Position numbers and translations under genes: made by a program. 64,000 nt of DNA from Bdellovibrionota bacterium (GTDB lineage Bacteria; Bdellovibrionota; UBA2428). The stretch covers positions 299,863 to 363,862 of the forward strand of contig JBIKUK010000001.1 of NCBI GenBank assembly GCA_044347615.1, read 5' to 3'. The notes beneath the pieces are model-generated. The model saw nothing but the letters and a program-made list of their open reading frames with translations, was not told the DNA's origin and made no database searches. Shown one piece after another: positions 4,775 to 55,896 of the stretch. The first letter of the stretch is position 1, and every line of letters starts with the position of its first letter.

Positions 4775-4848
4775 TGGAGGCGGCACCCGGATTTGAACCG
4801 GGGGTGAAGCTTTTGCAGAGCCTTGCCTTACCACTTGGCTATGCCGCC
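4775..4848 (-). tRNA. tRNA-Cys (anticodon GCA), CCA encoded
   Basis: Minus strand reads GGCGGCA-TA-GCC..GGC-A-AGGCT-CTGCAAA-AGCTT-CACC-CCCGG-TTCAAAT-CCGGG-TGCCGCC-T-CCA: 7-bp acceptor stem, 5-bp anticodon stem with GCA at positions 34-36, T-arm with TTCAAAT loop. Confidence 0.9.
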
Positions 4849-15243: not shown

Positions 15244-16149
15244 GTGCAAAATCTTTTAGAAAGTTTTCTAGATTATTTGGCTCATGAACAGAGAGTGTCG
15301 CCTCTTACGATTGAAGCGTATAAGAACGATCTTTTGTTTTGGCAGAAAACACTTTCTTCATTAACGGTAGAAAACCCTACTCCCCAAACATCGAGTGACT
15401 TCTTAAAAGCTTTAGAAAATTTAAAAAATCAAAAATACAAGGAAAGCACTCAACATCGAAAAAGAGCTGTACTGAGAAGTTTTTTACGCTTTCGATCTTA
15501 TCAACGTGATTCATGGGCAAGCTATGTGAATCTGATTCCTCTTTCAAATCATGAGGAGCTTTTGCCGAAAGCTTTATCCGTTAAGGAAGTTTCCGTTCTT
15601 TTAGAAACAATTGAAAATTCAAATGATACAAGATCAGAAAGAGACGCGGCTTTTGTAAATCTTTTGTATTCATCGGGGCTTCGTGTATCGGAGGCGCTTA
15701 ATTTGGAATGGACGCATTTGGATGAACAAAGACAAGTGCTTAGGGTCCTGGGCAAGGGCGCAAAAGAACGTTTGGTGCCTTACTCAGAAAGAAGCGCAAG
15801 AGCTCTCGATAAATACAAAAAAAATTCATGGCAAAAATGGAGCTGTGGAAAACTAAAGGAAAAGTCAAAAACGCGGGCGATTTTTATTTCAGCTCGCTCA
15901 AAGAATCTAACTCGAATGGGGGCATGGAAGGCCCTTTCTTTTTGGAGTCAGATGGCAGGACTGGAGCATGTTCATCCACACGTTTTAAGGCATTCCTTTG
16001 CCACGCATTTGCTGGGTGGCGGAGCGGATGTTCGTGTTGTTCAGTGTTTGTTGGGGCATTCGTCGATTAATACGACGGAACGTTATTTAAAGATTGAAGA
16101 CGAGGATGTTCAGCGCTTATTCAGGGACTACCATCCCTTAGCGGAATAG
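15244..16149 (+). CDS. tyrosine recombinase, XerC/XerD family
   Basis: 301 aa, GTG start; C-terminal catalytic region HPHVLRHSFATHLL...LLGHSSINTTERYLKI with the conserved R..H..R..Y residues of tyrosine recombinases. Confidence 0.85.
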   Translation: MQNLLESFLDYLAHEQRVSPLTIEAYKNDLLFWQKTLSSLTVENPTPQTSSDFLKALENLKNQKYKESTQHRKRAVLRSFLRFRSYQRDSWASYVNLIPLSNHEELLPKALSVKEVSVLLETIENSNDTRSERDAAFVNLLYSSGLRVSEALNLEWTHLDEQRQVLRVLGKGAKERLVPYSERSARALDKYKKNSWQKWSCGKLKEKSKTRAIFISARSKNLTRMGAWKALSFWSQMAGLEHVHPHVLRHSFATHLLGGGADVRVVQCLLGHSSINTTERYLKIEDEDVQRLFRDYHPLAE

Positions 16150-24707: not shown

Positions 24708-24808
24708 TCAAAGTGTCTAATGTTTGGACAATTGTTAAGAGCGACTTAATTTTTTTTTGACACTTTATGAAGAAGCTTTCTCGTTAAACTCGAAGCATGG
24801 AGCGGAAG

Positions 24809-26419
24809 ATGGCAAAGCACGCTGCTTTTAAAGCATTTCTTTTAACTTTATTCGTGGGAACCTTTCAAAAGACTCATGCAGGAGTCAACGTGAACAATGG
24901 TAATTTTTATATTACCTATACGGATTTTGCGATTTTTACTCCTGGTTTACCCATTGAGGTCTCTCGAACTTACAATAGCCGCTCAAGTTATATCGCTGGA
25001 AAGTTTGGAGTGGGTTGGTCAAGCGAGCTTGATTCTTACTTGAAATTTGAAAACAAAGATGTTGTTTATTTCGAGGGTGGTGGGGGAAATGTTCTTCGTT
25101 TTACTCCAAAGAATGAAAGCCTTTGGGAAAATAATCAGCTAGGAACTCAAAACGTTAAAAAAGTTATTAAAGATAAGGTTACCTCTTTTCAGCTGCAAAC
25201 AAATGTTGGAAAATCTTATACTTTTAACTCTTCAGGGCAGTTGATTAAAATTCAAGATGGAAACAAAAACTATATTGAACTTTCTTATGAAAAAAGCGCT
25301 TTTTCAAAAATTAAAGACAATTTTAATAACCAAGTTATTGTAAGTGTTGAAGATGTCGCTGGCTTTGTTCGCGTGAAGTCTCTTAAGTCAGGAGATAGAA
25401 AAGCTAGCTACGAGTATAACAAGAATGGAGACATGATCACGGCTGTGACCATGGATGGTGCCCGTTATGTTTATAGCTACGACGATCAGCACAACATGAC
25501 AAAAGTTTCTTATTCTAATGGAACAAGCAAGACAATGGAGTACAACAAAGTTCGTGATTGGATCACAGCTTTCAAGGATATAGACGGATCATCAATTAAG
25601 TACGATTACTTCACGGATACTCTTGATCCAGAAAATCGTTTCGGAACAATTGTTTCACGAAAAGATAGCACAGGAAAAGAAGAGGTTGCGCGTTATTGGT
25701 ATGAGTTTCGTAAGCGTAAAGACCTTTCTCGTTACGCTTATCGAACGGTATCATCCTTTAATGATCAAGCGACGGAGACATTGTTAACGGAATGTTGTGG
25801 AACTCCAATTACAATCACTCAGTGGAGCATTTCAGAAGTTAGTAACCCTACAAAAAACTTAGCTTGGACGCAGCCTGTTGGAAAAAAATCTTCCACAAGC
25901 TTTGAGTATTACGCTGATGGAACATTGAAAAGAAAAACTCTTTCTAATGGATCAGTAATCAGTTTGGCCTATGATTCTTCTAACAAGAAAATTACCAAGC
26001 TTGAAAAAGATGGTAATAAAATTGAGTATTCATATGATGGAAGACAGAATCTAGCATCTGCAAAAGATCATTCTGAAAAACTAAAAATGGATTTTACGTA
26101 TGATGTTCAAGGAAGAATTACAATTGTAAAAGAAACTCCATTGAAAGGTGCTTCTGGTGAGAGAAGCTTGTACTTTAAGTACAATTCAGATGGGTTGCCA
26201 GTTGAAGTTAAAGAGAGAAACTACGATGGCAAAGTCGCACTTATTAAAATGACTTATTTTCCAAATGGTCAAATTAAAGAGGTTTTAAATTCTAGTGGGC
26301 GTACAATTGCTTCACAGGGTGATCTCAATGTGACTCAAAGAATTTATTCAACCTTTCAACGAGTGCTTGAGGTTATTCAGCCTACAGGAGTGAGTCTCAA
26401 TGCGGAAGGAACCATTTAA
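24809..26419 (+). CDS. secreted YD-repeat (Rhs-family repeat) protein, short form without recognisable toxin domain
   Basis: Signal peptide MAKHAAFKAFLLTLFVGTFQKTHAG (second ATG at 24809 has GGAG upstream; track start is 24797); repeated YD units (YEYNKNGDMITAV, YVYSYDDQHNMTKV, IEYSYDGRQN, FTYDVQGRITIV, LYFKYNSDGLPVEV). Confidence 0.7.
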   Translation: MAKHAAFKAFLLTLFVGTFQKTHAGVNVNNGNFYITYTDFAIFTPGLPIEVSRTYNSRSSYIAGKFGVGWSSELDSYLKFENKDVVYFEGGGGNVLRFTPKNESLWENNQLGTQNVKKVIKDKVTSFQLQTNVGKSYTFNSSGQLIKIQDGNKNYIELSYEKSAFSKIKDNFNNQVIVSVEDVAGFVRVKSLKSGDRKASYEYNKNGDMITAVTMDGARYVYSYDDQHNMTKVSYSNGTSKTMEYNKVRDWITAFKDIDGSSIKYDYFTDTLDPENRFGTIVSRKDSTGKEEVARYWYEFRKRKDLSRYAYRTVSSFNDQATETLLTECCGTPITITQWSISEVSNPTKNLAWTQPVGKKSSTSFEYYADGTLKRKTLSNGSVISLAYDSSNKKITKLEKDGNKIEYSYDGRQNLASAKDHSEKLKMDFTYDVQGRITIVKETPLKGASGERSLYFKYNSDGLPVEVKERNYDGKVALIKMTYFPNGQIKEVLNSSGRTIASQGDLNVTQRIYSTFQRVLEVIQPTGVSLNAEGTI

Positions 26420-26423
26420 TTTT

Positions 26424-26726
26424 ATGAAAAAAACATTTTCTTTAGTTCTTGGGTTCTCTTTTTTCGTTTTTTCTAATTTTGCTCAAGCACAATTTGGACA
26501 ACCGCCTATGTTCATGGATGCTCAAGCTTCCCAAATGCAAATGGGACAAATGCAAATGATGGGGCAGGGAGGAATGCCTCCGGGTTTTGTAGGACAAGTT
26601 CCAGGTAGTTATAACGATGCTCAATGTTTGAATGCAGCTATGATGATGCCTCAGGCTCCCTTGACCCCAGCTTACTATAATCAACAACAGCAGCAGCTTA
26701 TGAATGGACACCAGCAGGGTTTTTAA
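26424..26726 (+). CDS. small secreted protein, Gln/Met/Gly/Pro-rich
   Basis: ATG at 26424 gives MKKTFSLVLGFSFFVFSNFAQAQ signal peptide, then MQMGQMQMMGQGGMPPGF...NQQQQQLMNGHQQGF; the track start at 26400 overlaps the upstream gene. Confidence 0.5.
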   Translation: MKKTFSLVLGFSFFVFSNFAQAQFGQPPMFMDAQASQMQMGQMQMMGQGGMPPGFVGQVPGSYNDAQCLNAAMMMPQAPLTPAYYNQQQQQLMNGHQQGF

Positions 26727-27586
26727 ACTTCGATTTGAACCATTTTATTAATCAAGAAAAGTCCAATTGCTACTAGAGTAAGTGCGATTAAAATAATGAT
26801 AAACCCGGGAATGGTTGTGAAAAGCGGTCGTGTAAGTTCAGGATCAATCGCATACATCATGCCCGCTACGCCAAACGGAACGCAGCCAACAATAATGCCT
26901 GCTGTGCGACCTTGAGCAGTGAGAGCATTAATTTTATTTTGAAGCTTTGAGCGTTCTCGAATCGTTTTGACGATTGTATCGAAAGTTTCGGCCATGTTAC
27001 CGCCGGTTTCACGCAAGATATTTACACTAGTTGCAAAAATGTAGATTTCTTCAGTCTTGATTCTTTTTGCTAAGTTTTCAAAACCTGCTTCAAGAGGAAC
27101 CCCGATTCTGTTTTGATCTAGAACAAGTCCAAATTCTTGACTTACAGGTGCGGGCATTTCATCAACAACAATCTGCAGTGTTTGAGGAACGTTTAGGCCA
27201 GAACGTAAGCCGTTCGCCATCAAGGTCAGTGCGTCGATCATTTGTGCCGTAAATTCTGTAACTCGTTTTTTTCTAATAATCGATGATGCATATATTTTGG
27301 GTAGGCGCATCCCCCAGAAAAAAAGAAAGACCCCAAAAATAATTCCTAGTGTTTTGTTGGGAAAAATAAAAATTACAAAGAGAGTTGTACTAAATCCCCA
27401 AATAAGAATTTCTTTGAGAACTTCCTTTTCTGTTTTAAGTTTGAAAATATCTTCATATTCAGTTTTAAGCTCATCCCGATTTTTTAAAATTTTTTTGTTC
27501 CAAACAAAATCTTCCCAAAAGCTATAAGGAAGGTAGGCAGCTAAGAAAAAACAAATCCCTGCGCCAATGATGACAAGAATATTCAT
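26723..27586 (-). CDS. Flp pilus assembly inner-membrane platform protein (TadB/TadC family)
   Basis: 287 aa polytopic membrane protein with a central cytoplasmic domain, adjacent to the CpaF gene in the Tad locus. Confidence 0.75.
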   Translation of the reverse strand: MNILVIIGAGICFFLAAYLPYSFWEDFVWNKKILKNRDELKTEYEDIFKLKTEKEVLKEILIWGFSTTLFVIFIFPNKTLGIIFGVFLFFWGMRLPKIYASSIIRKKRVTEFTAQMIDALTLMANGLRSGLNVPQTLQIVVDEMPAPVSQEFGLVLDQNRIGVPLEAGFENLAKRIKTEEIYIFATSVNILRETGGNMAETFDTIVKTIRERSKLQNKINALTAQGRTAGIIVGCVPFGVAGMMYAIDPELTRPLFTTIPGFIIILIALTLVAIGLFLINKMVQIEV

Positions 27587-27602: not shown

Positions 27603-29774
27603 TTAAGCCGCCTTGAAAAGACCTCGAGGAATCTTGATCCCGTGAGATTCTATTTTTTCTACGAATTTGGGAATGAATCCTGTCGCAACGTGTTTTCCTA
27701 TGACTTTTCTATCTTTGTCTTGTCCAGTTTGTTTGAATAGAAAGATATCTTGAGTTGTTATGACTTCACCTTGCATACCGCATACTTCTGTTATGTGAGT
27801 GATTTTTCTAGATCCATCTGAAAGACGTGATTGCTGAACAATTAAGTGAACAGCGCTGGAAATTTGTTCTCGAATAGCTTTTGCAGGTAAATCCATTCCT
27901 GCCATTAAGACAAGTGTTTCGATACGTGTGAGGGCATCGCGAGGGTTGTTGGCGTGAACTGTCGCCATAGAACCATCGTGACCTGTATTCATCGCTTGTA
28001 GCATGTCGAGGGCCTCTCCTCCCCGGACCTCACCGACGATGATCCGATCGGGTTTCATTCGAAGAGTTTGTTTGACAAGGTCACGAATAGTAATTGCTCC
28101 CGTACCTTCTATGTTTGCAGGACGAGTTTCAAGGCGACCAACGTGTTCTTGAACGAGAGAAAGTTCAGCAGCGTCTTCAACGGTGAGAATACGTTCTGTT
28201 GAGGGAATGAAGCTACTCAATATATTGAGACAAGTTGTTTTACCGGAGCCCGTGCCTCCTGAAATCACCACGTTCAGTCGAGCTTCGATACATGTTCGTA
28301 AAAAATCAGAAATTTCTGGGGTAATAGAACCAAATTTAATTAAATCTTCTGGGCCTAGTCTTTTTTCAGGAAATTTACGTATTGTGATCATTGGTCCATC
28401 GATCGCAAGAGGAGGAATGATTGCGTGAACACGGCTACCGTCTGCAAGTCGAGCGTCAACATAGGGTGTTTTTTCGTCGATTCTTCTTCCAAGTGGATTA
28501 ACAATTCTCTCGATAGCTGCCATGACTTGTACATTGCTTGAAAAAACCACAGGACTTTTCATGTTTTTCCCGCCTTTTTCAAGGTAAATAAGATCAGCGC
28601 GATTGACCATGATTTCACTAACTGTTCGATCTGCAATCAGATCTTCTAAGGGGCCAAGTCCGAGAGCCTCATCAAGAACTTCTTTTACGAGTTTTGAGCT
28701 ATCTTCACGACTCTTCCAGGGATGATCTTCTTTACCAACAATTTCCGTAATAATTTTCATCGCCTTATCTCGAAGCTCCATTTTTTTGGCTTCGTCTAAC
28801 TGGCGGTTAAGTTGTTCCTTTTTTAAATCCATTTTTTCTACAAGTTGTTCATGAATTAAAAGTTTGAAACGACTTCGAGGATCTTGCGGCTCTTTTCCAA
28901 AGCTTGATCGATTACTCGATTTTTTTGATGTGGTATTTTCCGGTGTTTTTTCAGAAGGAGGAGGTGTGGCGGGTTTTGCTCTTTTATAGGCAGAAAGCTT
29001 TTCTAAAATTTTTCCTTCTATGAGTTGTCGACCTAGTTGAATAAGAGCTTTTGTTGTGCCCGATCCAGTTGCAAGGGTGACCATAGGTTGGCCTTTTATG
29101 AGTGCGGTTCTCGCTAGATCGGTTTCTTCGGGAATAGAGCAGACGACTTGACGCTTTAGTGTTTGTTCCAAAAAAGCTGGGTTGTAGGGATTGTTGGGAG
29201 TCATTTTGTTCAGAATGATTTTGACGAATTCTTGAGGAAATAAAAGAGTTTGAATTTTTTCTAAAACTTTTTTTGTTTGATTGAGGACAAGAATTTCGGG
29301 GTTGCTCACAACAAGAATAATTGAGGAGTGTTCAAGTATTTTGATAATACTTCCATCAATTCGAGATCCGCAATCTACGACGGTGATGGGAAATGAACTT
29401 TTGATTGATCGCATGGCGCCGTCCATTTTTTCATCAGTGACATCAATAAGTCTTTCAAGGTTCTGAAGAAGTTGAAGAGAGTGGAGTTGGCTCGAAGCTC
29501 CGCCTAAATTGACTTGAGTCATTATTTTTTTGAGCGAGTCGCCACTTCTTATTTTTCCTTCTATCAGATCATTTCCAAATCCTTTGATTTCTTTATTTCC
29601 AAAAATAAGATTCAAGTCACCAGATCCTTGCATATCAGCATCGATTACGGCGACAGGGATTTTTCGATCAAGGCAAATAGAGAGAGCAAAGTTTCCCGCA
29701 AAAACAGACTTTCCAACTCCGCCTTTACCTCCAACGACTGCAATGATGTGTCCTGAGTTTAGGGGTGCGTTCAT
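27603..29774 (-). CDS. fused CpaE/TadZ-like ParA-type domain + CpaF/TadA secretion ATPase
   Basis: 723 aa; N-terminal deviant Walker [15 protein letters not shown] (ParA/MinD/CpaE-like), Pro/Ser/Thr-rich linker, then CpaF-type ATPase with Walker [14 protein letters not shown] and downstream TVEDAAEL...[11 protein letters not shown] motifs. Confidence 0.85.
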
Positions 29775-29775
29775 T

Positions 29776-31524
29776 TTATCTCCTCAGCCTAAATTTACGT
29801 TTTAAGCTTTCTGTTCCCGCTCCGGGAGTTTGAATAGTTGTGGGCGTGACAAAGATAATCATTTGATTTTTTGTGTCTTGAAGTTCATGATTTTTTGAAA
29901 ATTTAAAAAGAGAAATATCATTTGTTGTGGAATTTGGAGGATCTCTTCCTAGTGATACTTGTCTTCGCTCCGAGATAAGGCCTCCTATAGCGGCGCTTTC
30001 TTCATTTGAAACAACAAGTTGAGTTTTGATAGCATACTCTAGGCTACCTGGGGGGGCGTCGGGGGCGGGTTTGTCTTGAATTTCTGCTTGAGTAGCGTTG
30101 ATACTGATTAGAATTTTATCTGTCGTTCTAATGGAGACTGCGGCAAGAGATATATTTGTTTTAATATCTGCAAAAGCCCATGAAGGAGGATTGTTTGCGT
30201 TTCCTGGAATAAAATAGGGAACTTTTAAAACTTCAGCAATTGTAGATTCAGGACCTGGGTTACCGTCTGCTCCATCTTTCACGATAAGCGTCGCAGATTT
30301 TAAAACTCGAGCGTGACCATTTCTGGAGAGTGTTTCAAGAGTGGGAAAGAAACCGCTTAACGTCGCTTGAAACGAGCCAATAAATTTACTGATATCACTG
30401 GAGTAGCTGTAACTTGAATTTGTTGTAATACCTGGGGCCCATTTAAAATTGAAGGCTTTTATGTAGTTACGTACCAGACTGACAAAGTCTACTCGAATGC
30501 TCAAGTCTTTTTCAGGTTCTCCAGCTTGAGCGGGTCTTATACGAACACGAAGCATACACTCGGGCAGGTCTTTAAAGATAGATTCTTTTACGAGTTTGGA
30601 TTCAAGCTTGAATTGATCTTGAATCATAGCTTGGCAAGTTTGAACTGCTACGTCGCGTTCAATTTTTTTATCGACAGCACCTTCCAAAATAAATCGACCA
30701 TTTAGGACTCGAACATAAATATTTGTAGGTTTATCTCTGCCACCGTTAATTTCATCCTGCATTTTTTCTGCTATGTACTGCAAGGCGAGAGGTGAAACTT
30801 CGGCGAGGAGTTCAATAGGTTTTCCTGCAGTTTTATACCCATCATAAACAGTCATGACACGTCTAAGGTCTTTGGGCACAACAATTTGTCCGTCAATAAC
30901 AATGCGATCGCCAATGAGGCGCATTTCAAGACCTTCAATTTTTCCCATTTTTGCTTTTATTTGCTGTAAGAGAACAATCAGATCTTCGTCTGTGACGGTT
31001 ACACGAAAAACTTTAAAAAGCTTTTTCCCGGGAAGCGCTTTTTTGCTTTCGGGGTCAGTTATTTTGTCGTAGGCAAGTATTTGAGTGGTCATAGTTTGCC
31101 CAGTCGTAACAATAGTTGCCCTTTTGGGGGGAAAGCCAGGTTGAAGCATACTCTCTCTATCAAATTTTACAATTCCAGGAATTGTGATTCCCCAGTAAAC
31201 GTCTTTCACGTCTTTTATTTCTGGAACGTCTTCAAGAGAAATAGTGGTGCCTGTTTTTGCATTTGGATTTTTTTTGTTGAGCCCTATGTAAACTTCTTCA
31301 AAGCCATAAATAGGATTTAGTTGATCTCGATTTTTTAGAATTGTTTCTAAATCTGAATCTGCTATTTCGCCTACGAGTTGGGTTTTAGGAATGGTGCTTT
31401 CATTGGCTACAGAGTTTTCTTGGGTAAAGGATGTCTTTGAAGTAAAAACTAAAAGAAATAAAAAAAAGGTTTTTATTAGTTGATGTTTATTCAAAGACGC
31501 CTCCTCCGGATTCAAGTGGGTCAC
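29776..31524 (-). CDS. Flp pilus secretin (CpaC/RcpA family)
   Basis: 582 aa; C-terminal secretin-type region (AAIGGLISERRQ...MIIFVTPTTI); more likely start is TTG at about 31494 (GGAGG upstream, MNKHQLIKTFFLFLLVF signal peptide) rather than the track GTG at 31524. Confidence 0.8.
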   Translation of the reverse strand: MTHLNPEEASLNKHQLIKTFFLFLLVFTSKTSFTQENSVANESTIPKTQLVGEIADSDLETILKNRDQLNPIYGFEEVYIGLNKKNPNAKTGTTISLEDVPEIKDVKDVYWGITIPGIVKFDRESMLQPGFPPKRATIVTTGQTMTTQILAYDKITDPESKKALPGKKLFKVFRVTVTDEDLIVLLQQIKAKMGKIEGLEMRLIGDRIVIDGQIVVPKDLRRVMTVYDGYKTAGKPIELLAEVSPLALQYIAEKMQDEINGGRDKPTNIYVRVLNGRFILEGAVDKKIERDVAVQTCQAMIQDQFKLESKLVKESIFKDLPECMLRVRIRPAQAGEPEKDLSIRVDFVSLVRNYIKAFNFKWAPGITTNSSYSYSSDISKFIGSFQATLSGFFPTLETLSRNGHARVLKSATLIVKDGADGNPGPESTIAEVLKVPYFIPGNANNPPSWAFADIKTNISLAAVSIRTTDKILISINATQAEIQDKPAPDAPPGSLEYAIKTQLVVSNEESAAIGGLISERRQVSLGRDPPNSTTNDISLFKFSKNHELQDTKNQMIIFVTPTTIQTPGAGTESLKRKFRLRR

Positions 31525-32431
31525 TTGCAGGTTTTCTTACGGGGGCAGCGCCCTCAGCTGTGTTGTTCTTAGCAGCGGCGGCAGCAGCAGCGGCAGCTGC
31601 GGCTTGTCGCGCTTCTTCAATTATTCTTTTTTGCTCTCGATCTCGAGCTTCCGCTCGTTTCGAGTCGGGCCCAAGAACTTCATCAAGAGTTGTTGATCCT
31701 ATGTTTGTTTCGGCGCGATCGATGGGGTTTCTCAGTGTAAGGTAAAGATCGGTGCCTTGGGCGAGTGCGTAAATTAAAATTTGAGATTGTTCTGGCGTTA
31801 CTTCTACGGTGACTGTGTTGAAGTTTTTTTCCCCTCTCGCGCTTACTGCTATTTTTCTTTGATTGAGTGGATCGTTTTCATAACGCGTGGGAATGTTATT
31901 CTGGATAATTTCTCCAGCAGCTAAAATCGTAATATTTTGTAAAAGTGTTTTGAGTTCAGTTTGTTTTGATCCATCTGGGTTTGGGTAGCTAACGCTTCCA
32001 ATAATATCCACATGGTCACCAGGCTTAATAAGTTTAGAGACACCTGTATTATCATTTACAGGAATAGACATGGCTCTTTTTGAAGCAGAAACTTGGACCG
32101 CAAGACCTGTCTCAGCGCTTTTGGGTGAGAGTTTTGTCAAAAGTATTTGCTCACCTTCTTTAATGGGTACAAGAGCTACCATGTCTTTAATATCTTTAAA
32201 GTCGCTAAGGGCTCCTGGCTGAATAAATTTGTCGAACTGACTTTCTTGAGTCACCATCGTTTCATCAAGGACTTGCATTTCATTAATATTTCTTGAGGCA
32301 ATCAAAACGGTTGAAGGCTTGCCAAATTTTTCTTTGCTTTCTTGGTCTTGGCTGTATACGTAAAGACCAACAAGAGCCATGCCTAGTAAAGCAAAAGCAA
32401 AACTTACAAAAAAAGCACGCGACTGGTTCAA
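31487..32431 (-). CDS. Flp pilus assembly protein CpaB/RcpC, with C-terminal poly-Ala tract
   Basis: 314 aa; N-terminal membrane anchor, SAF-like region, position between tadE-like genes and the secretin; poly-Ala run near the C-terminus. Confidence 0.75.
   Translation of the reverse strand: MNQSRAFFVSFAFALLGMALVGLYVYSQDQESKEKFGKPSTVLIASRNINEMQVLDETMVTQESQFDKFIQPGALSDFKDIKDMVALVPIKEGEQILLTKLSPKSAETGLAVQVSASKRAMSIPVNDNTGVSKLIKPGDHVDIIGSVSYPNPDGSKQTELKTLLQNITILAAGEIIQNNIPTRYENDPLNQRKIAVSARGEKNFNTVTVEVTPEQSQILIYALAQGTDLYLTLRNPIDRAETNIGSTTLDEVLGPDSKRAEARDREQKRIIEEARQAAAAAAAAAAAKNNTAEGAAPVRKPASDPLESGGGVFE
31572..31603 (-). repeat. (GCN)n trinucleotide tract encoding 11 consecutive Ala in CpaB
   Basis: gcagcggcggcagcagcagcggcagctgcggc on the plus strand; a GC-rich simple repeat inside an otherwise AT-rich gene. 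Confidence 0.6.
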
Positions 32432-32489: not shown

Positions 32490-32915
32490 TTACTCACAAG
32501 CATCTATGCTTCCGGGACGTCTAAAAACTGTCATTTTATGAATTCGTTGAAGGCCCATATCAACGCCAAGAATACTTGGTAATTTGAATAAGTTGGGTCC
32601 GTCGGTTGAAAGTTGGGGTGTAGCAGAAAAACATGTTTTAGAATTGTCCACGATAATATTTTGAGATCCAGACATAGGAAATTCATAAAGATTTTGAGCT
32701 CCAGATCTATTTGCTCTAGAGACAAGAGGGCCAGAATTAGAGATTTTTGCAAAAGCTGCGTTGCGGGCTGCTTCTTGAAGAAGCGTCGATTCTCGAAGTC
32801 CTATAAAGAAAACAGTACTTACAATTAGAATGACAATAAATAGCAAGACTGCTGGGAGAAACTCAATCATGGCCTGGCCTTTATTGTTTTTGAAACGACT
32901 AATTTTTTTTAACAT
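32490..32915 (-). CDS. TadE/TadG-like pseudopilin
   Basis: 141 aa; N-terminal GQAMIEFLPAVLLFIVIL motif (G-x4-E-F/Y prepilin-like processing site plus hydrophobic helix). Confidence 0.65.
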   Translation of the reverse strand: MLKKISRFKNNKGQAMIEFLPAVLLFIVILIVSTVFFIGLRESTLLQEAARNAAFAKISNSGPLVSRANRSGAQNLYEFPMSGSQNIIVDNSKTCFSATPQLSTDGPNLFKLPSILGVDMGLQRIHKMTVFRRPGSIDACE

Positions 32916-33481
32916 CCATTATCCTCCATGCCTTCCCAGCTATGAAGTGAGTTTCCGCCTCTGAAAAATTTAGAAAAAAATTCTTGAAAAAAAACTTGGC
33001 ATTCTTTTTTAGTTGGCTCACGTCCAAGATTACTTTGAGTAGAAAGATTGAGCGTACCAAATGTTTTTTTTAAATCTTGACCAAGAGGAACCGTTATCAA
33101 GGGCACTTCAAATTCTAAGCGAAAAGGGGTTCTAACGTTACCCGAATTTACGGAGGGAGTGCTAAAATTAGTAATGGTTGCAAGTTTTCTTTTTGAGGAA
33201 AAACCAAAAGGAGTTGAGCCTGATCCAGGGCTTACGTTTGGAACGTAAATTTTCATGGTTCTCGTTGCAGCCTCAAGCTGGGAATTGGGATCGTCCCGGC
33301 TTGCTTGATAAGCACGAGCCGACATAAAAGTTGCGTAACTTAAATATTGGTAAACTGCAAAAGAAACAACAGCATTGTAACTTAAAGAAAGAAAAAAAAT
33401 AAAAGCAATAAAAACAAATATGAATTCGACTGTGCCTTGTCCCTCTTTTTTATGAAATTTAACTTTCATAATTTTTTTCAT
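32909..33481 (-). CDS. TadE/TadF-like pseudopilin
   Basis: 190 aa; N-terminal GQGTVEFIFVFIAFIFFL motif; start overlaps the flp1 stop. Confidence 0.65.
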   Translation of the reverse strand: MKKIMKVKFHKKEGQGTVEFIFVFIAFIFFLSLSYNAVVSFAVYQYLSYATFMSARAYQASRDDPNSQLEAATRTMKIYVPNVSPGSGSTPFGFSSKRKLATITNFSTPSVNSGNVRTPFRLEFEVPLITVPLGQDLKKTFGTLNLSTQSNLGREPTKKECQVFFQEFFSKFFRGGNSLHSWEGMEDNGC

Positions 33482-33696
33482 TTAGTTTTGAACTCCATCT
33501 TGTTGTAGTAGGCCTCTGCGGGTTTTCCAGCGGTGGCGGAATCTTTTTCGACCTTGTCTTTGAAGGTTTCAAGGGGTTTTTTCATCTTTTGTTTAAGAAG
33601 TGTGTATGCGACAAGTGCCATTCCAACAATGGCTGCAATGACAAGTATATATTCCACAACAACTTGTCCTTTGCGGAGATTTTTTTTCTTTTTCAT
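33478..33696 (-). CDS. flp: Flp-family type IVb pilin (copy 1)
   Basis: 72 aa; KG-QVVVEYILVIAAIVGMALVA: Flp prepilin motif G/xxxxEY followed by a hydrophobic helix. Confidence 0.75.
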   Translation of the reverse strand: MKKKKNLRKGQVVVEYILVIAAIVGMALVAYTLLKQKMKKPLETFKDKVEKDSATAGKPAEAYYNKMEFKTK

Positions 33697-33714
33697 AAAA
33701 TAAAATTTAGTCGC

Positions 33715-33897
33715 TTATTTGCACTCACTGTTTTTATTATTAGAAGAAATACAATCAGTTGTTTTTGTTTTTAACCTACTCATGGAATCTCGAAAAACAT
33801 CATTAACTATGAATTTTACAACAACCACAGTTGTTACCGCTACCAGTAAAGATAGAAGTATGTATTCGACAAGCACTTGACCGTTTTTAAATTTCAT
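33715..33897 (-). CDS. flp: Flp-family type IVb pilin (copy 2)
   Basis: 60 aa; NG-QVLVEYILLSLLVAVTTVVV. Confidence 0.7.
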   Translation of the reverse strand: MKFKNGQVLVEYILLSLLVAVTTVVVVKFIVNDVFRDSMSRLKTKTTDCISSNNKNSECK

Positions 33898-33929
33898 AGC
33901 TCACATCCTATTTAGCTAAGATTTTAGTT

Positions 33930-34109
33930 TATTTGTCTGAGGAAAGCGTGCCTACACTACCATCAACACTTTTGAAGACGCTATCAACAGTTCCGCCGAT
34001 TTTACCTTTTATCGTTTTACCGAAAATCATGACGAAGCCAACCATGACAGCGAGGATGAGAATCCACTCTAATGTACCTTGACCGCTTTTTTTTGAGTTG
34101 TTTTTCATT
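33930..34109 (-). CDS. Flp-like pilin (copy 3), 59 aa, not in the ORF track
   Basis: Own translation: MKNNSKKSGQGTLEWILILAVMVGFVMIFGKTIKGKIGGTVDSVFKSVDGSVGTLSSDK; AGGAG 7 nt upstream of the ATG at 34109; G-x4-E-W variant of the Flp motif. Confidence 0.6.
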
Positions 34110-34177
34110 TTTTTCTCCTTGAATTTCTTTTCGGGCGACTGAATAAAAAGCTTCGTTAATTTTGTATTAATTTTGTG

Positions 34178-34942
34178 TTAAGAAGCACGTTTTTGAATAG
34201 TTTTTGACTTTTTAGTGATTTCGGTTTCAGAGGATGTGCTTTCAGAAAAGTTTTCACCTACAAATACAACTTTAAATGTATTGATCCAAATTTTTAAATC
34301 AAGTGATAGGGAGAGGTCTCGGACGTATTTACAATCTAGGGTTGCTTTTTCATCTGGATCATTAAGATTTGTTTTTAAAGCTTGCCAATATCCAGACATT
34401 CCAGGGCGTACAGCAAATCTTTCAACATGGGATTCGGTCATGTGAAGGTTTTCTTCAATAATGTAAGGCCTTGGTCCCAAGAGAAGCATGTCTCCTTTAA
34501 CAACATTTATTAGCTGAGGAATTTCATCAATTTTCCATTTTCTAAGAAAACGACCAAGTTCTCCTTCGACTCTTGGATCATTTTCTATTTTTTTTAGAGG
34601 GGTAAATCCCATTTCTATAACTTTAGGAGATCCGGTTTTTAAAGTTCTAAATTTATAAACATAAAAAATGGTTCCATTTTTTCCAACTCGTTTTTGCTTA
34701 TGGAATACTTTACCGCCTTTGAGTGTTTTTATAAGAATTGCGATCATCCCCAAGAATGGACTTAGTAAGGTTAGTAAAAGGGTTGCGAGAAGTGTTTCAA
34801 GGATAATTTTGAATTTGTAATAAATTGGAAGTTTTTTTTGAATTGAGAATATTTTATTTTGAAATTTTATAAAATCTGAAATTGGTAGGGCAGGCACTAC
34901 TTTTTTTTCATTATCTCTTAAGAAATTGGTTTCATGGGTCAC
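34178..34942 (-). CDS. bacterial sugar transferase (polyprenyl-phosphate hexose-1-phosphate transferase, WbaP/ExoY-like)
   Basis: 254 aa; TM helix then KFRTLKTGSP...DEIPQLINVVKGDMLLLGPRP motif typical of the bacterial sugar transferase family. Confidence 0.8.
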   Translation of the reverse strand: MTHETNFLRDNEKKVVPALPISDFIKFQNKIFSIQKKLPIYYKFKIILETLLATLLLTLLSPFLGMIAILIKTLKGGKVFHKQKRVGKNGTIFYVYKFRTLKTGSPKVIEMGFTPLKKIENDPRVEGELGRFLRKWKIDEIPQLINVVKGDMLLLGPRPYIIEENLHMTESHVERFAVRPGMSGYWQALKTNLNDPDEKATLDCKYVRDLSLSLDLKIWINTFKVVFVGENFSESTSSETEITKKSKTIQKRAS

Positions 34943-49130: not shown

Positions 49131-49567
49131 TTGTTCTTTTATCTTTTTTTAGTTTTTTTTCATACTCTTCACAGCCAGAGGGGCTTGTTTTGAAGCCTCC
49201 AGCAGATCCTGTGCCAAGAAGAATATTAAGAAATAAGAATATTACATTTGTCGATGAAGAGAATTTAAATAAAAAAGTTAAAGTGCAAACCAATGATAAA
49301 GTTCTCTTGCACGAAACAAAGTATAGGGTAAAGGGTAGGAGTCGACCAAGCCGAACTGGGAGTGTGGTTGCAGTTATAGATAGTGGAGAAATTGTTGAGG
49401 CGATAAAAGATTCAGAAGATGGAAGGTGGAAAGCTGTTTATTTCAAAAAAAATGACATAAAAGTTTGGGTTCCAATATCAGCTCTTTCCAAAAAAAAATC
49501 GATCAATTCAAATCAATCTTCGTCTGATTTGGATGAATTGGCTGAAGAGGAAAGCCCAGATGATTGA
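49118..49567 (+). CDS. hypothetical secreted protein with SH3b-like segment
   Basis: 149 aa; signal peptide; GSVVAVIDSGEIVEAIKDSEDGRWKAVYF resembles a bacterial SH3 core; acidic C-terminus. Confidence 0.4.
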   Translation: MPFLIVLLSFFSFFSYSSQPEGLVLKPPADPVPRRILRNKNITFVDEENLNKKVKVQTNDKVLLHETKYRVKGRSRPSRTGSVVAVIDSGEIVEAIKDSEDGRWKAVYFKKNDIKVWVPISALSKKKSINSNQSSSDLDELAEEESPDD

Positions 49568-51408
49568 ATTATCTCCTCCGATAATTTCTTAATTTCGTGA
49601 AAAGAAATATTTGAGTCTAGGGAGTTTTTTTGGAATCCAAATCGCTTCTCCTCCAATTTCTTAAAGAGTTCCCGAAGTTTGTTTATTTTTGGATGAGTGG
49701 AGACGTGACAAACATTCAAAAGCATAGTCATTAACTCATCAAAAGAGGCTTCATTTTTTGAAAGTTTTGCAAATCTTAATATTATCCACTCCTCTATGTA
49801 TCCTAGTAATTGTACCAAATTCAAGTCTGGTTGCTTGTTGATTTTCTTTTCAATAAATATCCAAGGATAATTCTGTAAAAGTCGATCTTCTTCCTCTCTT
49901 TTTCTTCTTTGAATAAAAAATAGTGAGGCTAGAGCATAAAGAAAGGCGGGTATTGTCCATACGAAGATTGAAATAGATGTTTTATCTAAGTTTACAAATT
50001 CTTGAGTTCCAGCAAAAATAATACTTTTTCCTTTCTTTTCTTCTGTAAATGGTTTGTTTGAAGGTTCAATGTTTAGTTCAATCGGAGGAATCGGAATTGT
50101 TTCGTATGATTTCTTATCGGGGTCAAAGTAAGACCAAGAGTTAGCTGCTATTTTATAGTCACCTGAATTTTGAGGAACTATTAATACTTCAAAATCCTTA
50201 TAGCCTTCTGATCTATCATTTGTTTCGTAGTTTGTAGCGGTTCTGCTTTTTTGAAGAGAGGAGGGAAGATTTAGTTCGGGTTCTTGAAGTCCTTTTATGT
50301 TTCCTTTGCCCTCAATCCTCAATTTTAAGTTGAAAGCTTCATTTTGAACAAGTTTTTGATTTGGTTGTTCGAGTGATATTTTATAGGTTCCAACTGGTAT
50401 ATTATTTTGACTAATGGAAGCTGGTCTGGGTGGTAAAGGTATAACCGTTACAGGAATGGAACCAGATGTTTTGTTGAATAGTTGATTCTGGCCTAGCGTT
50501 AGTTGTGGGTTTTGCATTTGTTCTAGCATCTGAAATATATCAGTATCCACTTCGAACCTCATTTTAAGTGGATCTATAAGAAGTTCACCGCTTTTTATAG
50601 GAAATAGTGCAAATCTAATAATCTCTGCTTTAAAGTAATTGTTGTTCCTATATTCAGTTCTTTCAGGACGCCAGTTTTTAGGAATAAAGAGTTGTTCTTT
50701 TAAGAAATCTTTAAATGTTGGAAAAGAACCAAATTCTAAGTTTCTAAATATATTTTCATTTGTATAAATATAAAACGGAAGCGTAATTAGCTCGCCCACA
50801 AAGACCTGTGTCTTAGAGGGTTCTGCTACAACAAAAACATCAAGCTGTTTATTTTTATTTTCTGGCTCAATTCTGTTGAGAGGTTTTTCTTCATCAAGTT
50901 CAAAAAGATTAAAAAATGGAAGTCTTGTGTTGGGTTGAACCTGCGGTAATTGCTGTTTCGGTCTTAGACTTTTTACGATTATAGATGCTTCATCAATATT
51001 AAAAGTTTTGTTAGGTGCTGAAATTATAATTTTAGGTGTTTTGATTTCCCCTATCTTTAGGGGTACAAGGGTTAACTTTAATAATGAACTAGATTTACGA
51101 GAAGATTTTCCATTAACAAAAAATGTCTGAGTTTTTTTTAAAATCTGTGGTGCAGAGATTTCCCAGCTTTGACTTTTGTCTTCAATTGATTTCAACGAAA
51201 GATCTAACGGAGTCGATTCTTTGCTATCAATTTGAAAGCTAACTGTTATGGTTTGTCCTGAGCTTTCCCTAGGTTCAATTTTAATTTGAACATTGTTGGA
51301 TGGATCTTCTTTTGATGAAACAAGATCAGAGAAATTTATAAGAGTAAAAAAAATGATAAGTTTAATTTTTTTCATATTACTTCGATTACCATGGCTTAGA
51401 AGAGCCAT
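49513..51408 (-). CDS. BatD-like protein (signal peptide, large extracytoplasmic domain, C-terminal TM)
   Basis: 631 aa; position as last gene of the MoxR/BatA/BatB operon; single TM near the C-terminus (FVWTIPAFLYALASLFFI). Confidence 0.55.
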   Translation of the reverse strand: MALLSHGNRSNMKKIKLIIFFTLINFSDLVSSKEDPSNNVQIKIEPRESSGQTITVSFQIDSKESTPLDLSLKSIEDKSQSWEISAPQILKKTQTFFVNGKSSRKSSSLLKLTLVPLKIGEIKTPKIIISAPNKTFNIDEASIIVKSLRPKQQLPQVQPNTRLPFFNLFELDEEKPLNRIEPENKNKQLDVFVVAEPSKTQVFVGELITLPFYIYTNENIFRNLEFGSFPTFKDFLKEQLFIPKNWRPERTEYRNNNYFKAEIIRFALFPIKSGELLIDPLKMRFEVDTDIFQMLEQMQNPQLTLGQNQLFNKTSGSIPVTVIPLPPRPASISQNNIPVGTYKISLEQPNQKLVQNEAFNLKLRIEGKGNIKGLQEPELNLPSSLQKSRTATNYETNDRSEGYKDFEVLIVPQNSGDYKIAANSWSYFDPDKKSYETIPIPPIELNIEPSNKPFTEEKKGKSIIFAGTQEFVNLDKTSISIFVWTIPAFLYALASLFFIQRRKREEEDRLLQNYPWIFIEKKINKQPDLNLVQLLGYIEEWIILRFAKLSKNEASFDELMTMLLNVCHVSTHPKINKLRELFKKLEEKRFGFQKNSLDSNISFHEIKKLSEEIIQSSGLSSSANSSKSDED

Positions 51409-53218
51409 TTTGCTTACCTAGCTCATTACCTTTTTTCTGAGATTCACTTTTTAATTTCTTTTTAATAACTTTTCGCTCTTCACTGCTGATGCTTTGCATG
51501 ATTTGTTTTACTTCATCAGGCGTATAGTTCTTACCTCTGTAGTCTTGAGGCTTTTTATCTTCATCGTTTGGATCTTGGCTTTTATTGGATTTTCCTTGGT
51601 TATTAGATTTTCCTTGACCTTGATTTCCGCCACCGCTTCCTTGCTTTTGAGAGTTTTGTTTTAATAAACGCGCAAGATTGTGTCGGATTATGGGATCTAG
51701 CGTTTTTGAGGGAGGGTCGTTAAGTGCATTATAGTAGCTTTCAATTGCTGCCTGAGTTTTTTTACCCAGTTCGTAGGCTTGAGCAAGTTGGTAAAACCAT
51801 TTTTTTTTATCCAAAGGATCGGGATCTTTTTTGGCCAAAGGCTCTAAGATCTTTGAAATCTCTAGAGCTTCCTCTTCTACAGGGCTTAGGTCTAATCCTT
51901 CTTTTGTCTGCAGATATAATTGTTTATTTTCTATCTGTTTCAGTCGAGATGTTATCCAGTTAAAGATATATTTTTTTTCATTTGATTCACGGTTAAGAGC
52001 TTTTTCAAAAAGCTCTTGTGCGTAATCGAATTTCTTTAGATTGAAAAAGAAGACTCCAATATTATTTTGTAAGCTATCCAAAGTAGTGGAAGCTTGTAAT
52101 GTTTTTTGTGAAAAAAGGGCAATAGCAAAGACAACCTTGGACGAGATTTTTAGAAATTTGTTTCTGTAGTATAAAAAAACTCCCCCCGTCTCAGTTGTTA
52201 TCCACTCTAAAAGTAAAAGAATAATTCCAATAAGAAGAGGAATTTGAAATTTTTCTTCTTTTTCAACTTGGACGCCTTCCTCTTTAAGTTTAAACTCTAA
52301 TTTTTTTAAGTTTTCAGCAAAACTTACTTTAAAGTTTGAAGACTCATCCGCTATGTAAACTTGACCATTAGTTTTCTCTGCTAGTTTTGTTACAAAACTT
52401 TTTTCAGCTTTAGTTTTTGCATCTAAACCCGTTTCTGGGTCTTTTACAAATCCCAAACCGTGACCGTCTTTATCTTTTTGAGGAATAGGGGTGCCTTGTT
52501 TTTTGCCAATTAAAAAAGTTGAGATGGGAATTTTATTCCTGATGAGGCCTTTTATAATGCTTGATTCAATTTGGTTACTGTCATCACCATCGGTGACAAG
52601 GAGTATTGACCCCGCAGTATTTTCTTTTTCGTCATCGTTTTTGGTATCAGTAATATCCTTATACCCTAGGGCCTCCGCGCAAGTTATTACTGCGCCTTGG
52701 ATAAAAGTTGAGGGAAGGCTTACAAAGCTGGGGTTTAGGGGGTTTAGGTAGTCTGCAATAGCATCTAAATCTGAAGTAAGAGGTGCTGCGATAAAAGCAC
52801 CTCCTGCAAATCCGACAAGAGTAACTTTTGTTTTATTTAGATTTTCAAGAAGAAGTATGAGCTCTCTTTTTGCGTATTCCAAACGATTGGGATTCATATC
52901 TTCTGCATGCATACTTTGAGAAAGATCAAGCGCTATGCATAGGTCTGAACCCACGACTTTTTTTATGCTGTGTTTGGCTCCCCACTTAGGTCGCATAAGA
53001 CTAAAAGCAATCAAAGTAATTCCTAAAATAAAAAGAAATTCTTTGAAAACTCTATTTTTGGGTAATTTTTGAGTTTGAGAAACTTCAAGTGTTTTGGAGG
53101 CCTGTATGATTTGCGAGTATTTTTTTCTCAAAAAATGAGTTTTGAAAATTAAATATATTAAACATCCGACTATCAAAAATAAAAAGCTAAATTCTGGTCT
53201 ATGAAATTCAATATTCAT
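51386..53218 (-). CDS. BatB-like protein: 2 TM + vWA domain + TPR-like region + Lys/Gly-rich tail
   Basis: 610 aa; vWA MIDAS context (ALDLSQSMHAED...LLVTDGDDSN); TPR-like helices; low-complexity basic C-terminus. Confidence 0.7.
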   Translation of the reverse strand: MNIEFHRPEFSFLFLIVGCLIYLIFKTHFLRKKYSQIIQASKTLEVSQTQKLPKNRVFKEFLFILGITLIAFSLMRPKWGAKHSIKKVVGSDLCIALDLSQSMHAEDMNPNRLEYAKRELILLLENLNKTKVTLVGFAGGAFIAAPLTSDLDAIADYLNPLNPSFVSLPSTFIQGAVITCAEALGYKDITDTKNDDEKENTAGSILLVTDGDDSNQIESSIIKGLIRNKIPISTFLIGKKQGTPIPQKDKDGHGLGFVKDPETGLDAKTKAEKSFVTKLAEKTNGQVYIADESSNFKVSFAENLKKLEFKLKEEGVQVEKEEKFQIPLLIGIILLLLEWITTETGGVFLYYRNKFLKISSKVVFAIALFSQKTLQASTTLDSLQNNIGVFFFNLKKFDYAQELFEKALNRESNEKKYIFNWITSRLKQIENKQLYLQTKEGLDLSPVEEEALEISKILEPLAKKDPDPLDKKKWFYQLAQAYELGKKTQAAIESYYNALNDPPSKTLDPIIRHNLARLLKQNSQKQGSGGGNQGQGKSNNQGKSNKSQDPNDEDKKPQDYRGKNYTPDEVKQIMQSISSEERKVIKKKLKSESQKKGNELGKQNGSSKPW

Positions 53219-54240
53219 GGATACTTCCTCCAGATACTTTGAAGAGCGAGGCCCTCAGCTATCAGGAAAAGCATCCCAACCCAAAGAAAAAAATCAGCTC
53301 CCTCGCTAGTTTTAGTCTGATTTGAAATTTCGATTTTACTTTTTTCAAGTTGGTCAATCTCGCTGAGTATTTTACCCATTAAACTTTGGTCAACAGCCGA
53401 GTATGCTTTGCCTCCCGTAAAGTTTGAGATTTTTTCGAGAAGCTCATCGTTAGCGGCATCTGTTAAATATTGTAGGACTTGTTTTTTATTACCAAATCCA
53501 TCCTCGACTGTTACAGGAAAGGGAACTCTACCTTTTTTTCCGATTCCTATAGAATAAATTTTAATTCCAAAACCAGCAGCAATTTGTGAGGCTGATATTG
53601 GATCGATTGAGCCCATGTTATTGTCTCCATCTGTAACAAGGAGAATTGTTTTAGATTTAGCCGTTGATCCTTTAAGGTGGTTAACGGCAACAGCTAGCGC
53701 TTGTCCGATAGCTGTTCCATCTTCAAGGCCTGAATTTGAACTTGATTTTAAGTTAGCTAGAAGGAGTTTGTGATCAAGAGTTAGGGGCGCGCTTAAGTAA
53801 GCTTCCCCGCTAAATAATACTAATCCCAATCGATCATCTTGCCGTAAGTTGATGAATTCTACCAATCGATCAATTGCCACGGTTCTTCTGTTAGGTGAAA
53901 AGTCTAAAGCATCCATAGACTTTGAAAGGTCAAAGGCAACGATCATATCTATTGATTCAACAATCCTTTTTTCTTTACCAAATTTTTTCTGAGGTCTTGC
54001 AAGAGCTAATATCAAAAAAGTAAGGGCAGTGAATCTCAGCGCTGCTTGAAGTTTAAATGGAGTAATCTGTTTCTGATTTTCGGTACGAGTTGACCAGTCA
54101 AAGGGGAATATGAGACGACTTCTAAAGCGGACAGAAATTTTTATGAAAAATATAAAACATAGTAAAAGGGGAATTAAGAGCAAGAATGCTTCGGGGCTAA
54201 ACCATGCGAAATTACTTAAGCTTTGACTTGAGTAGCTCAT
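53215..54240 (-). CDS. BatA-like protein: 2 TM + vWA domain
   Basis: 341 aa; vWA motifs (IVAFDLSKSMDA...LLVTDGDNN) after two N-terminal TM helices. Confidence 0.75.
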   Translation of the reverse strand: MSYSSQSLSNFAWFSPEAFLLLIPLLLCFIFFIKISVRFRSRLIFPFDWSTRTENQKQITPFKLQAALRFTALTFLILALARPQKKFGKEKRIVESIDMIVAFDLSKSMDALDFSPNRRTVAIDRLVEFINLRQDDRLGLVLFSGEAYLSAPLTLDHKLLLANLKSSSNSGLEDGTAIGQALAVAVNHLKGSTAKSKTILLVTDGDNNMGSIDPISASQIAAGFGIKIYSIGIGKKGRVPFPVTVEDGFGNKKQVLQYLTDAANDELLEKISNFTGGKAYSAVDQSLMGKILSEIDQLEKSKIEISNQTKTSEGADFFLWVGMLFLIAEGLALQSIWRKYP

Positions 54241-55022: not shown

Positions 55023-55023
55023 A

Positions 55024-55884: not shown

Positions 55885-55896
55885 GTGTTTAACTCC

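Follow-up and report, generated by a model that had tools for sequence, protein, structure and literature searches.

The DNA analyzed here, referred to as the window, is a stretch of 64,000 nucleotides (nt) from a Bdellovibrionota bacterium (UBA2428; contig JBIKUK010000001.1, positions 299,863–363,862 of the forward strand). Coordinates are given as window positions. Three short open reading frames (ORFs) lie in tandem directly upstream of a tad gene set, and are named here flpA, flpB and flpC in transcription order. An earlier note on this DNA had described them as three tandem Flp pilin genes upstream of tadE, which is borne out by their motif, by the downstream tad set and by their ortholog families. 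The three ORFs exist where that note placed them, except that they are on the minus strand and that the ORF of 59 amino acids (aa), given there as 33930–34109, is one base off and occupies 33929–34108. Because the genes are on the minus strand, this ORF is the first copy in transcription order rather than the third.

Three short prepilin genes and the downstream tad set

The flpA gene (33929–34108, minus strand) encodes a 59-aa prepilin, the ortholog of Flp1, in which a 9-aa leader, MKNNSKKSG, precedes QGTLEWILILAVMVGFVMIFGK; the mature peptide is 50 aa long and starts with QGTLEW. The product of flpB (33715–33897, minus strand) is a 60-aa prepilin with a 6-aa leader, MKFKNG, preceding QVLVEYILLSLLVAV, and a 54-aa mature peptide starting with QVLVEY. 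That of flpC (33478–33696, minus strand) is a 72-aa prepilin with a 10-aa leader, MKKKKNLRKG, preceding QVVVEYILVIAAIVG, and a 62-aa mature peptide starting with QVVVEY. Common to all three are the leader, the motif Q-x3-E-(W/Y) directly after the cleavage Gly, and a hydrophobic helix. As the earlier note pointed out, flpA fell below the threshold of the ORF track, the default of the lister being 60 aa. That note had also correctly read the EW that replaces EY in this ORF and its own ribosome-binding site (RBS).

The intergenic gaps are short, 31 nt between flpA and flpB and 18 nt between flpB and flpC, and there is a 4-nt overlap between the flpC stop and the start of the following gene. The Shine-Dalgarno (SD) sequence of flpA, AAGGAG at 34115–34120 (minus strand), 7 nt upstream of the ATG, is the only strong one among the three flp genes; in the relatives L081 and L085 it reads GGGAG. 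The start of flpB is preceded by AGGA at a distance of ~ 9 nt.

The tad set follows directly on the same strand. It begins with two TadE/F-like pseudopilins. The first (32909–33481, minus strand; 190 aa) carries KKEG followed by QGTVEF, a leader and motif as in the flp ORFs that is kept in relatives. The second (32490–32915, minus strand; 141 aa) carries NNKG followed by QAMIEF and is assigned from motif and synteny. Pfam TadE matches the second at E = 0.43 only, the first has no Pfam match above noise, and an NCBIfam scan of the operon-head proteins gave nothing useful for any of the five prepilins. Next are CpaB/RcpC (31487–32431, minus strand; PF16976, 1.7e-23; TIGR03177, 3.5e-43) and an RcpA/CpaC-like secretin (29776–31524, minus strand; PF00263, 2.9e-9). 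A 723-aa fusion of a TadZ/CpaE-like MinD/ParA domain with the TadA/CpaF ATPase (27603–29774, minus strand; PF01656 and PF00437; TIGR03819, 1.7e-97) and a single-copy TadB/C-type platform protein (T2SSF; 26723–27586, minus strand; PF00482, 8.3e-18) complete the set. Chloroflexota, Bacillota and Acidobacteriota are among the many phyla in which full-length relatives of the TadZ-TadA fusion are present.

Among the 473 six-frame ORFs of 30 aa or more, a regular expression for the prepilin motif (basic residue, G-x4-E-aromatic, hydrophobic run) picks out five, which follow one another on a single strand: the three flp ORFs together with both TadE/F-like genes. After shuffling of residues the average is 0.10 matches, so the pattern is not attributable to chance. 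No further flp gene, complete or trimmed, was found elsewhere in the 64-kb window. A search of a 5.8-billion-protein collection retrieved orthologs in 9 clusters for FlpA (75–92% identity), 10 for FlpB (65–100%) and 9 for FlpC (78–100%). All FlpA clusters carry a precomputed PF16982 match, marked 'weak' in those looked up. ORF length and frame of the flp genes are kept in all relatives, and the layout Bac_transf-61-61-72-187-141-RcpC-secretin-TadZ/A-T2SSF-small ORF-RHS recurs unchanged in contigs from several independent metagenomes. A copy of the region that is 100% identical to the window along 2.6 kb lies on Logan contig SRR10955143_7165, and FlpB and FlpC identical to those of the window are encoded on a contig of 749,981 bp. 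The source samples include the GROS21 lake metagenomes.

Nonsynonymous (dN) and synonymous (dS) divergence was estimated between the window and two relatives, for which synonymous sites are near or past saturation (dS 1.4–2.3, or not computable). The dN values of the flp genes are 0.14–0.18. The dN/dS ratio is 0.08–0.09 for flpA and 0.11–0.12 for flpB; for flpC, dN is 0.143 and dS is saturated, and the ratio is clearly low. Pseudopilins 1 and 2 have ratios of 0.16 and 0.08, respectively, and the flp values are similar to those of cpaB and the tadE-like genes. Judged from these sequences, flpA, flpB and flpC are genuine protein-coding genes under purifying selection, since dN/dS is low while synonymous change is saturated.

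A case for chance ORFs, with at least one of the three not being a gene, could be built on their very short length, on the fact that no curated family cut-off is reached, and on a public gene call on L088 (2720–3001), DNA 100% identical to the window, that skips the intact 59-aa flpA. Most public gene calls do include flpA. With a dN/dS of ~ 0.1 at saturated synonymous change, conservation of length and frame in all relatives, and five motif matches where 0.10 are expected, this explanation is already refuted as far as sequence evidence goes. The L088 gene call also uses other starts for the two tadE-like genes, giving 186 and 126 aa where the window has 190 and 141.

Conservation of the three paralogues in near and distant relatives

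Within each ortholog set the first 22 mature residues are almost invariant, and the tails are also conserved, differently in each set. The tail pattern is ..FGKTIK.KIG.T...VF.SVD.SV.TL.. in FlpA, ..KFIV.DVF..SM..L...T..C.S......CK in FlpB, and ..K.KM..PL.TFK.K...DS...GKP...YYNK... in FlpC (alignment of nine sequences). Profile-profile comparison of the three ortholog families finds them alignable over 12–34 N-terminal columns only, in agreement with the earlier observation that the C-terminal tails differ completely. Conservation of the tails as one family in relatives, which the earlier note had named as evidence against its proposal, was not found; there are three separate families. As far as the alignments allow, flpA, flpB and flpC are three old, separately conserved paralogues, because their tails are unalignable between families and each is conserved within its own set. 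The functional diversification that the earlier note had proposed is supported in this respect. Its suggestion of mere variants is less likely than one of major and minor pilins, the three genes being old, separately conserved and apparently co-transcribed.

Variability along the FlpA tail follows a 100-degree helical periodicity, equalled by 2 of 5000 shuffles, in agreement with an uninterrupted amphipathic helix whose conserved face is buried and whose variable stripe is exposed. AlphaFold2 (AF2) models FlpB as a single helix of residues 3–51 (predicted local distance difference test score, pLDDT, 78) and FlpC as helices of residues 2–56 and 61–66 (pLDDT 66). Mean tail entropy is 0.58 bits in FlpC versus 0.79 bits in FlpA. 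In FlpB, C49 and C59 are invariant in all ten orthologs (the alignment includes nine relatives at 66–87% identity); they are C-terminal and 9–10 residues apart, and could form a disulfide loop. In more distant relatives the tail of the second flp product ends in TGQGF, and no such Cys pair was seen there.

All three proteins have the features by which Flp/Tad (type IVc) pilins are operationally recognized: a small size (50, 54 and 62 aa when mature, where ~ 40–60 aa is typical), a leader and motif (with W in FlpA), linkage to tad genes, and a body that is helical only, as predicted by AF2 for FlpB and FlpC and indicated by the periodicity of tail variability for FlpA. They are Flp-type prepilins by this operational definition, not by curated models. 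The one feature of such systems that was not found locally is a dedicated TadV/CpaA-type prepilin peptidase. A profile of FlpA finds no match among solved structures (PDB chains) even at E ≤ 10. One FlpB homolog is labelled 'UPF0333 family' by the Joint Genome Institute (JGI).

The residue that follows the conserved Glu sets FlpA apart. Searched against 1.84 billion proteins with a threshold of E ≤ 1e-3, a profile of the FlpA orthologs retrieved 115 representatives of 50% clusters; the motif is readable in 111 of them. This position is Tyr in 93, Val, Ile, Leu or Met in 15, and Trp in a single one, the representative of the window's own clade; Gln follows the cleavage Gly in 94. Trp at +6 is invariant in all ten FlpA sequences of the clade, so the reading of EW in the earlier note concerns a fixed residue. 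In the Caulobacter Tad filament, Tyr6 is called conserved in all Tad pilins and lies beneath the N-terminus of the neighboring subunit, where it keeps the helical register, and Glu5 points outwards (Sonani 2023, PMC10710030). Trp6 of FlpA is a rare, clade-fixed and conservative (aromatic for aromatic) change and, if the packing role carries over from Caulobacter, would lie at a packing contact.

The more distant relatives have an ATPase that is 47–55% identical, the nearest in a scan of species-representative genomes being 52–55% identical. They contain a series consisting of an Flp1-like gene, a second short flp, usually tadV, and a third pilin-like gene of 90–109 aa, which directly adjoins the first of the tadE-like genes or overlaps with it. 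The loci L001 and L002 have a complete second flp; in L005 and L006, which are of the Bdellovibrio type, it is trimmed to MxxEY/F. FlpA aligns with Flp1 of Bdellovibrio sp. HCB288 over its full length at 44% identity and is 36% identical to Flp1 of L001. The hhalign alignment of FlpB with the second flp of L001 and L002 spans 46 columns and reaches into the tail (E = 3e-6); that of FlpC with the third pilin-like gene of L001–L006 spans 44 columns and takes in the PLxxF segment (E = 1e-7). The distant second and third genes are thus probable orthologs of flpB and flpC by profile alignment. An internal GTG at Val+2 of flpB was considered as a start codon, because it would give MLVEY, the register of the trimmed Bdellovibrio Flp2. 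It was rejected, as the codon is GTT in L081 and L085.

Between L081 and L085 (10001–10186), which are otherwise very similar, flpA differs with a dN of 0.114 and a dS of 0.345, whereas dS is 0.025 for flpB and 0.02–0.04 for the tadE-like genes. This suggests recombination or a faster turnover at the major-pilin gene.

Proposed transcription, processing and roles of the pilins

The 69-nt region upstream of flpA is conserved far better than synonymous sites. A candidate sigma-28 (FliA)-type promoter, AAG-N16-CCGAAA, lies at 34129–34153 (minus strand), with AAG and CCCGAAAAG invariant in 7 aligned relatives. The consensus of FliA promoters in attack-phase B. bacteriovorus is TTAAG-N16-CCGATA (PMC3627812), and the promoter of the Bdellovibrio TAD operon responds to FliA (PMC5430801). 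We hypothesize a FliA-like promoter at this place. Further upstream, a tandem 11-mer, TTAACACAAAA/TTAATACAAAA (34160–34181, minus strand), overlaps the stop codon of a sugar-transferase gene, and a further TTAAC extends the element to 34155. It is conserved in comparison with L081, L085 and L086 despite saturated synonymous sites, and is possibly a regulator or UP-like site. A sigma-70-like site upstream of flpA, TTAACA-N17-TAACGA, was discarded because it is not conserved in L081 or L085.

Neither the flpA–flpC stretch nor the gap preceding flpA contains a sigma-70 promoter-like site on the minus strand, and no intrinsic terminators were found around or between the flp genes. The intergenic gaps show no significant RNA structure (z-scores of +1.3, −0.1 and −1.6). 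With neither terminator nor stable RNA structure between the flp genes, a single transcript is likely, and differential expression by attenuation finds no support.

These observations bear on the view that the three genes encode alternative major pilins, that is, interchangeable subunits for different conditions or for surface or antigenic variation. All three do have a complete leader, the cleavage motif and an all-helical body of major-pilin size, and the contrast in dS between flpA (0.345) and flpB (0.025) in two near-identical relatives hints at recombination or diversification. Nevertheless, each paralogue is a family of its own with a non-homologous tail, and the gaps of 31 and 18 nt lack promoter-like sites, terminator-like sites and stable RNA structure. 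Moreover, relatives whose ATPase is only 47–55% identical already have separate counterparts of FlpB and FlpC, and the flp genes of B. bacteriovorus fail to complement each other (PMC5430801). Interchangeable subunits are therefore improbable.

The window also differs from distant relatives in the peptidase gene. In four of the distant loci, tadV, confirmed as Peptidase_A24, separates the second flp from the third pilin-like gene (L001, 4914–5420; L002, 281–784; L004, 5531–6076; L006, 5616–6140). The corresponding gap (33697–33714) is only 13–18 nt in the window and its close relatives. A tblastn search of the window with four TadV proteins from relatives gave nothing below E = 1. All five prepilins keep Gly at −1, Gln at +1, Glu at +5 and an aromatic residue at +6. 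By this comparison of loci, tadV has been lost from the locus in this clade and the five cleavage motifs have been retained. A class-III-type peptidase encoded outside the window is expected, because the five prepilins keep the cleavage motif and none was found in the window. L006 (5187–6140), a Bdellovibrionales metagenome-assembled genome, has tadV together with a trimmed flp2 (MTTEF...), and its Flp1 has Ala instead of Gly before QGATEY. Since L006 combines the two, trimming of Flp2 is not simply the result of TadV loss.

FlpA is probably the major pilin, on the basis of gene order, RBS strength, Flp1 orthology and conservation pattern: flpA comes first and alone has a strong SD, its product is the ortholog of Flp1, and the variability of its tail follows the helical pattern described above. 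In the Bdellovibrio proteome no Flp other than Flp1 was detected (PMC5430801). It is unlikely that FlpB or FlpC is instead the main fibre subunit, or that two or three Flps make up the fibre as an obligate heteropolymer. Such an arrangement would account for the canonical EY of FlpB and FlpC, a feature reported as conserved in all Tad pilins, where FlpA has EW, and for their tails, which are at least as conserved as that of FlpA (0.58 bits in FlpC versus 0.79). It would leave aside that FlpA, encoded first and with the only strong SD, is orthologous to the sole Flp of the Bdellovibrio proteome and belongs to a large Flp1-like family, and that its variability fits an exposed stripe on a packed helix.

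FlpB, the flp2 counterpart, is a probable minor or adapter pilin, and FlpC a probable minor pilin. Another possibility is that FlpB, FlpC or both are small inner-membrane proteins of the assembly machine with a class-III-like N-terminus, and not pilus subunits. We regard this as very unlikely. In its favor, neither protein matches any Flp model, their Class_IIIsignal matches being sub-threshold only, and flpC lacks an SD in the window. Against it, Gly followed by Q-x3-EY is invariant across the FlpB and FlpC orthologs, and the two genes, with the major pilin gene on one side and the TadE/F genes on the other, are placed just as Flp-type minor pilins are in other Tad systems.

The explanation that we consider best, with a probability of about 0.68, is that three real Flp prepilin genes head the tad operon, with FlpA as the major pilin and FlpB and FlpC as minor or adapter pilins acting by the following mechanism. 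The operon would be transcribed as one unit from the FliA-like promoter just upstream of flpA. A class-III-type peptidase from outside the window would cut after the leader Gly of the five prepilins and leave Gln at position 1. FlpA would then polymerize as the all-helical major subunit, its tail having a conserved buried face and a variable exposed face, and its Trp in place of the near-universal Tyr6 would be a conservative, clade-fixed substitution. FlpB, with its putative C-terminal Cys-Cys loop, and FlpC would be Flp-type minor or adapter pilins of low abundance. Together with the two TadE/F-like proteins they would prime assembly and cap the fibre, in a manner similar to KilK and KilO with the Myxococcus Tip complexes. 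By analogy with B. bacteriovorus, the pilus would probably serve prey invasion; predation by that organism depends on each of flp1, flp2 and flp4, none of which complements another (PMC5430801).

Several results weigh against this explanation. The comparison with Flp profile hidden Markov models that the earlier note had recommended was run, and none of the three proteins reaches the cut-off of a curated Flp model. FlpA scores 29.9 bits (E = 3.7e-7) with Pfam PF16982 Flp1_like, 3.6 bits under the gathering score of 33.5, FlpC matches that model at E = 0.13 and FlpB does not match it, while PF04964 Flp_Fap and the NCBIfam Flp models give no match at E ≤ 1 for any of the three. PF04021 Class_IIIsignal scores the three Flps at 16.9, 18.1 and 19.7 bits (E of 0.006–0.0008), under its gathering score of 23.7. 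The alignment scores of FlpB and FlpC with their distant counterparts lean largely on the shared N-terminal motif. No Peptidase_A24 was detected by Pfam among the scanned ORFs of at least 120 aa in the window. The flpC gene is without a recognizable SD in the window, although GGAG is present in L081 and L085. The candidate promoter matches the consensus at 3 of 5 (−35) and 5 of 6 positions, and the window shows no enrichment of the sigma-28 pattern, with 2 occurrences where 1.58 are expected. Finally, the only grounds for the division into major and minor pilins are the order of the genes, the strength of the RBS, orthology and the pattern of conservation.

A more radical version, a remodelled predation pilus, was considered because Tyr6, which sets the register in the only solved Tad filament, is fixed as Trp, the linked tadV is lost with the cleavage sites kept, and the Flp2 counterpart has a disulfide-capable loop. 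Here, Trp6 of the putative major pilin would alter core packing or register, the cysteine-loop protein would be an adapter or adhesin, and a non-Tad peptidase would have been recruited. This version is speculative, and we give it little weight beside the major-pilin and adapter explanation.

Neighboring genes and known systems

A Bac_transf initiating sugar-phosphate transferase (34178–34942, minus strand) ends 69 nt upstream of flpA, a synteny kept in the close clade only. A link between this gene, the Ser/Thr-rich tail of FlpA and pilin glycosylation is conceivable. At the other side of the tad set, two genes are convergent with tadB. The first encodes a small secreted protein of 108 aa with a signal peptide and a Q/M/G-rich low-complexity body (26400–26726, plus strand); it is 61–62% identical in L081 and L085, and no match was detected in the more distant loci. 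The second, at the far end of the locus, encodes an RHS/DUF6531 protein (24797–26419, plus strand) that matches tadB-adjacent genes in L002–L006, including Bdellovibrio sp. HCB288, with E values of 1e-32 to 1e-47. The pair resembles Bd0109/Bd0108 of the host-interaction (hit) locus. Elsewhere in the window, genes for a MoxR AAA ATPase, DUF58, two VWA proteins and BatD (49513–56886, minus strand) form a Bat-type (aerotolerance-like) operon unrelated to the flp genes. The window further contains a PF10136 site-specific recombinase (9375–11336, minus strand), a XerC/D-type integrase (15244–16149, plus strand) and one tRNA (4778–4848, minus strand), the sole Rfam match in the window.

The arrangement is already published as the TAD locus of Bdellovibrio-like organisms, and its gene order from flp1 to tadB together with the RHS gene is matched here. 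Bdellovibrio TAD loci have one complete and one trimmed flp, TadV is absent from Bdellovibrio genomes, and three TAD-associated flp genes occur in Bacteriovorax and Halobacteriovorax (Avidan 2017, PMC5430801). The window resembles bd0109–bd0119 of B. bacteriovorus HD100 (flp1, bd0119; flp2, bd0118) in its succession of flp, pilin-like, rcpC, rcpA, tadA and single tadB genes with an RHS-type neighbor and in the lack of tadV at the locus; a FliA-like promoter is plausible here. It differs from Bdellovibrio in that its second flp has the full leader and the Gly-Gln cleavage site where the Bdellovibrio flp2 is trimmed to MxxEY, in the W at +6 of Flp1, in the RHS gene being on the opposite strand, and in an ATPase that is only 47% identical. 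With Halobacteriovorax marinus SJ and Bacteriovorax spp., as described in the literature, it shares three complete flp genes in the TAD locus of a low-GC member of the Bdellovibrio and like organisms. However, those genomes are reported to have TadV (PMC5430801), and none was found in the window.

Three tandem flp genes also head the tad operon of Haemophilus ducreyi (flp1-flp2-flp3; PMC3201912). The H. ducreyi copies are 50–80% similar to one another (PMC3201912) and hence recent paralogues, whereas the tails in the window are unalignable. The pilus of H. ducreyi is an adherence organelle, and its bearer is a pathogen rather than a predator. In the Kil system of the predator Myxococcus xanthus, the fibre consists of the major pilin KilP, and TadEFG-like Tip complexes are joined to it by two Flp-type adapter minor pilins, KilK and KilO, which are short and all-helical (KilO has 59 aa; Herrou 2025, PMC12075869). 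The window is similar in having short helical Flps with a leader and cleavage motif alongside a putative major pilin and larger minor pilins, and the peptidase for some Kil subunits is likewise unlinked (PMC12075869). Unlike M. xanthus, it has only two TadE/F-like genes and no multiple tip clusters were seen, so roles assigned from Kil are by analogy. PilA of Caulobacter crescentus (PDB accession number 8U1K, PMC10710030) is, like FlpA, a small alpha-1-only pilin with the Flp motif; FlpA differs in its Trp and in Gln at +1, and there is no detectable sequence similarity between the two.

Current understanding is left unchanged by this locus, and it is modestly notable for three features: the fixed change of Tyr6 to Trp, the loss of the linked tadV with the cleavage sites kept, and an untrimmed, Cys-bearing Flp2 counterpart. 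It is also a reminder that pilin genes of 59–61 aa can be lost to ORF-length thresholds and, at least once, to a gene caller. Each of the TAD flp genes of B. bacteriovorus is essential for predation, and none can replace another. The locus adds an uncultured lineage with three full-length, separately conserved short pilins. It offers a cleaner comparative series for the idea of a major pilin with adapters, which comprises an untrimmed Flp2 with a linked tadV (L001, L002), an untrimmed Flp2 without a linked tadV (this clade) and a trimmed Flp2 (Bdellovibrio). FlpA itself is a natural Tyr6-to-Trp variant at a structurally important contact of the filament.

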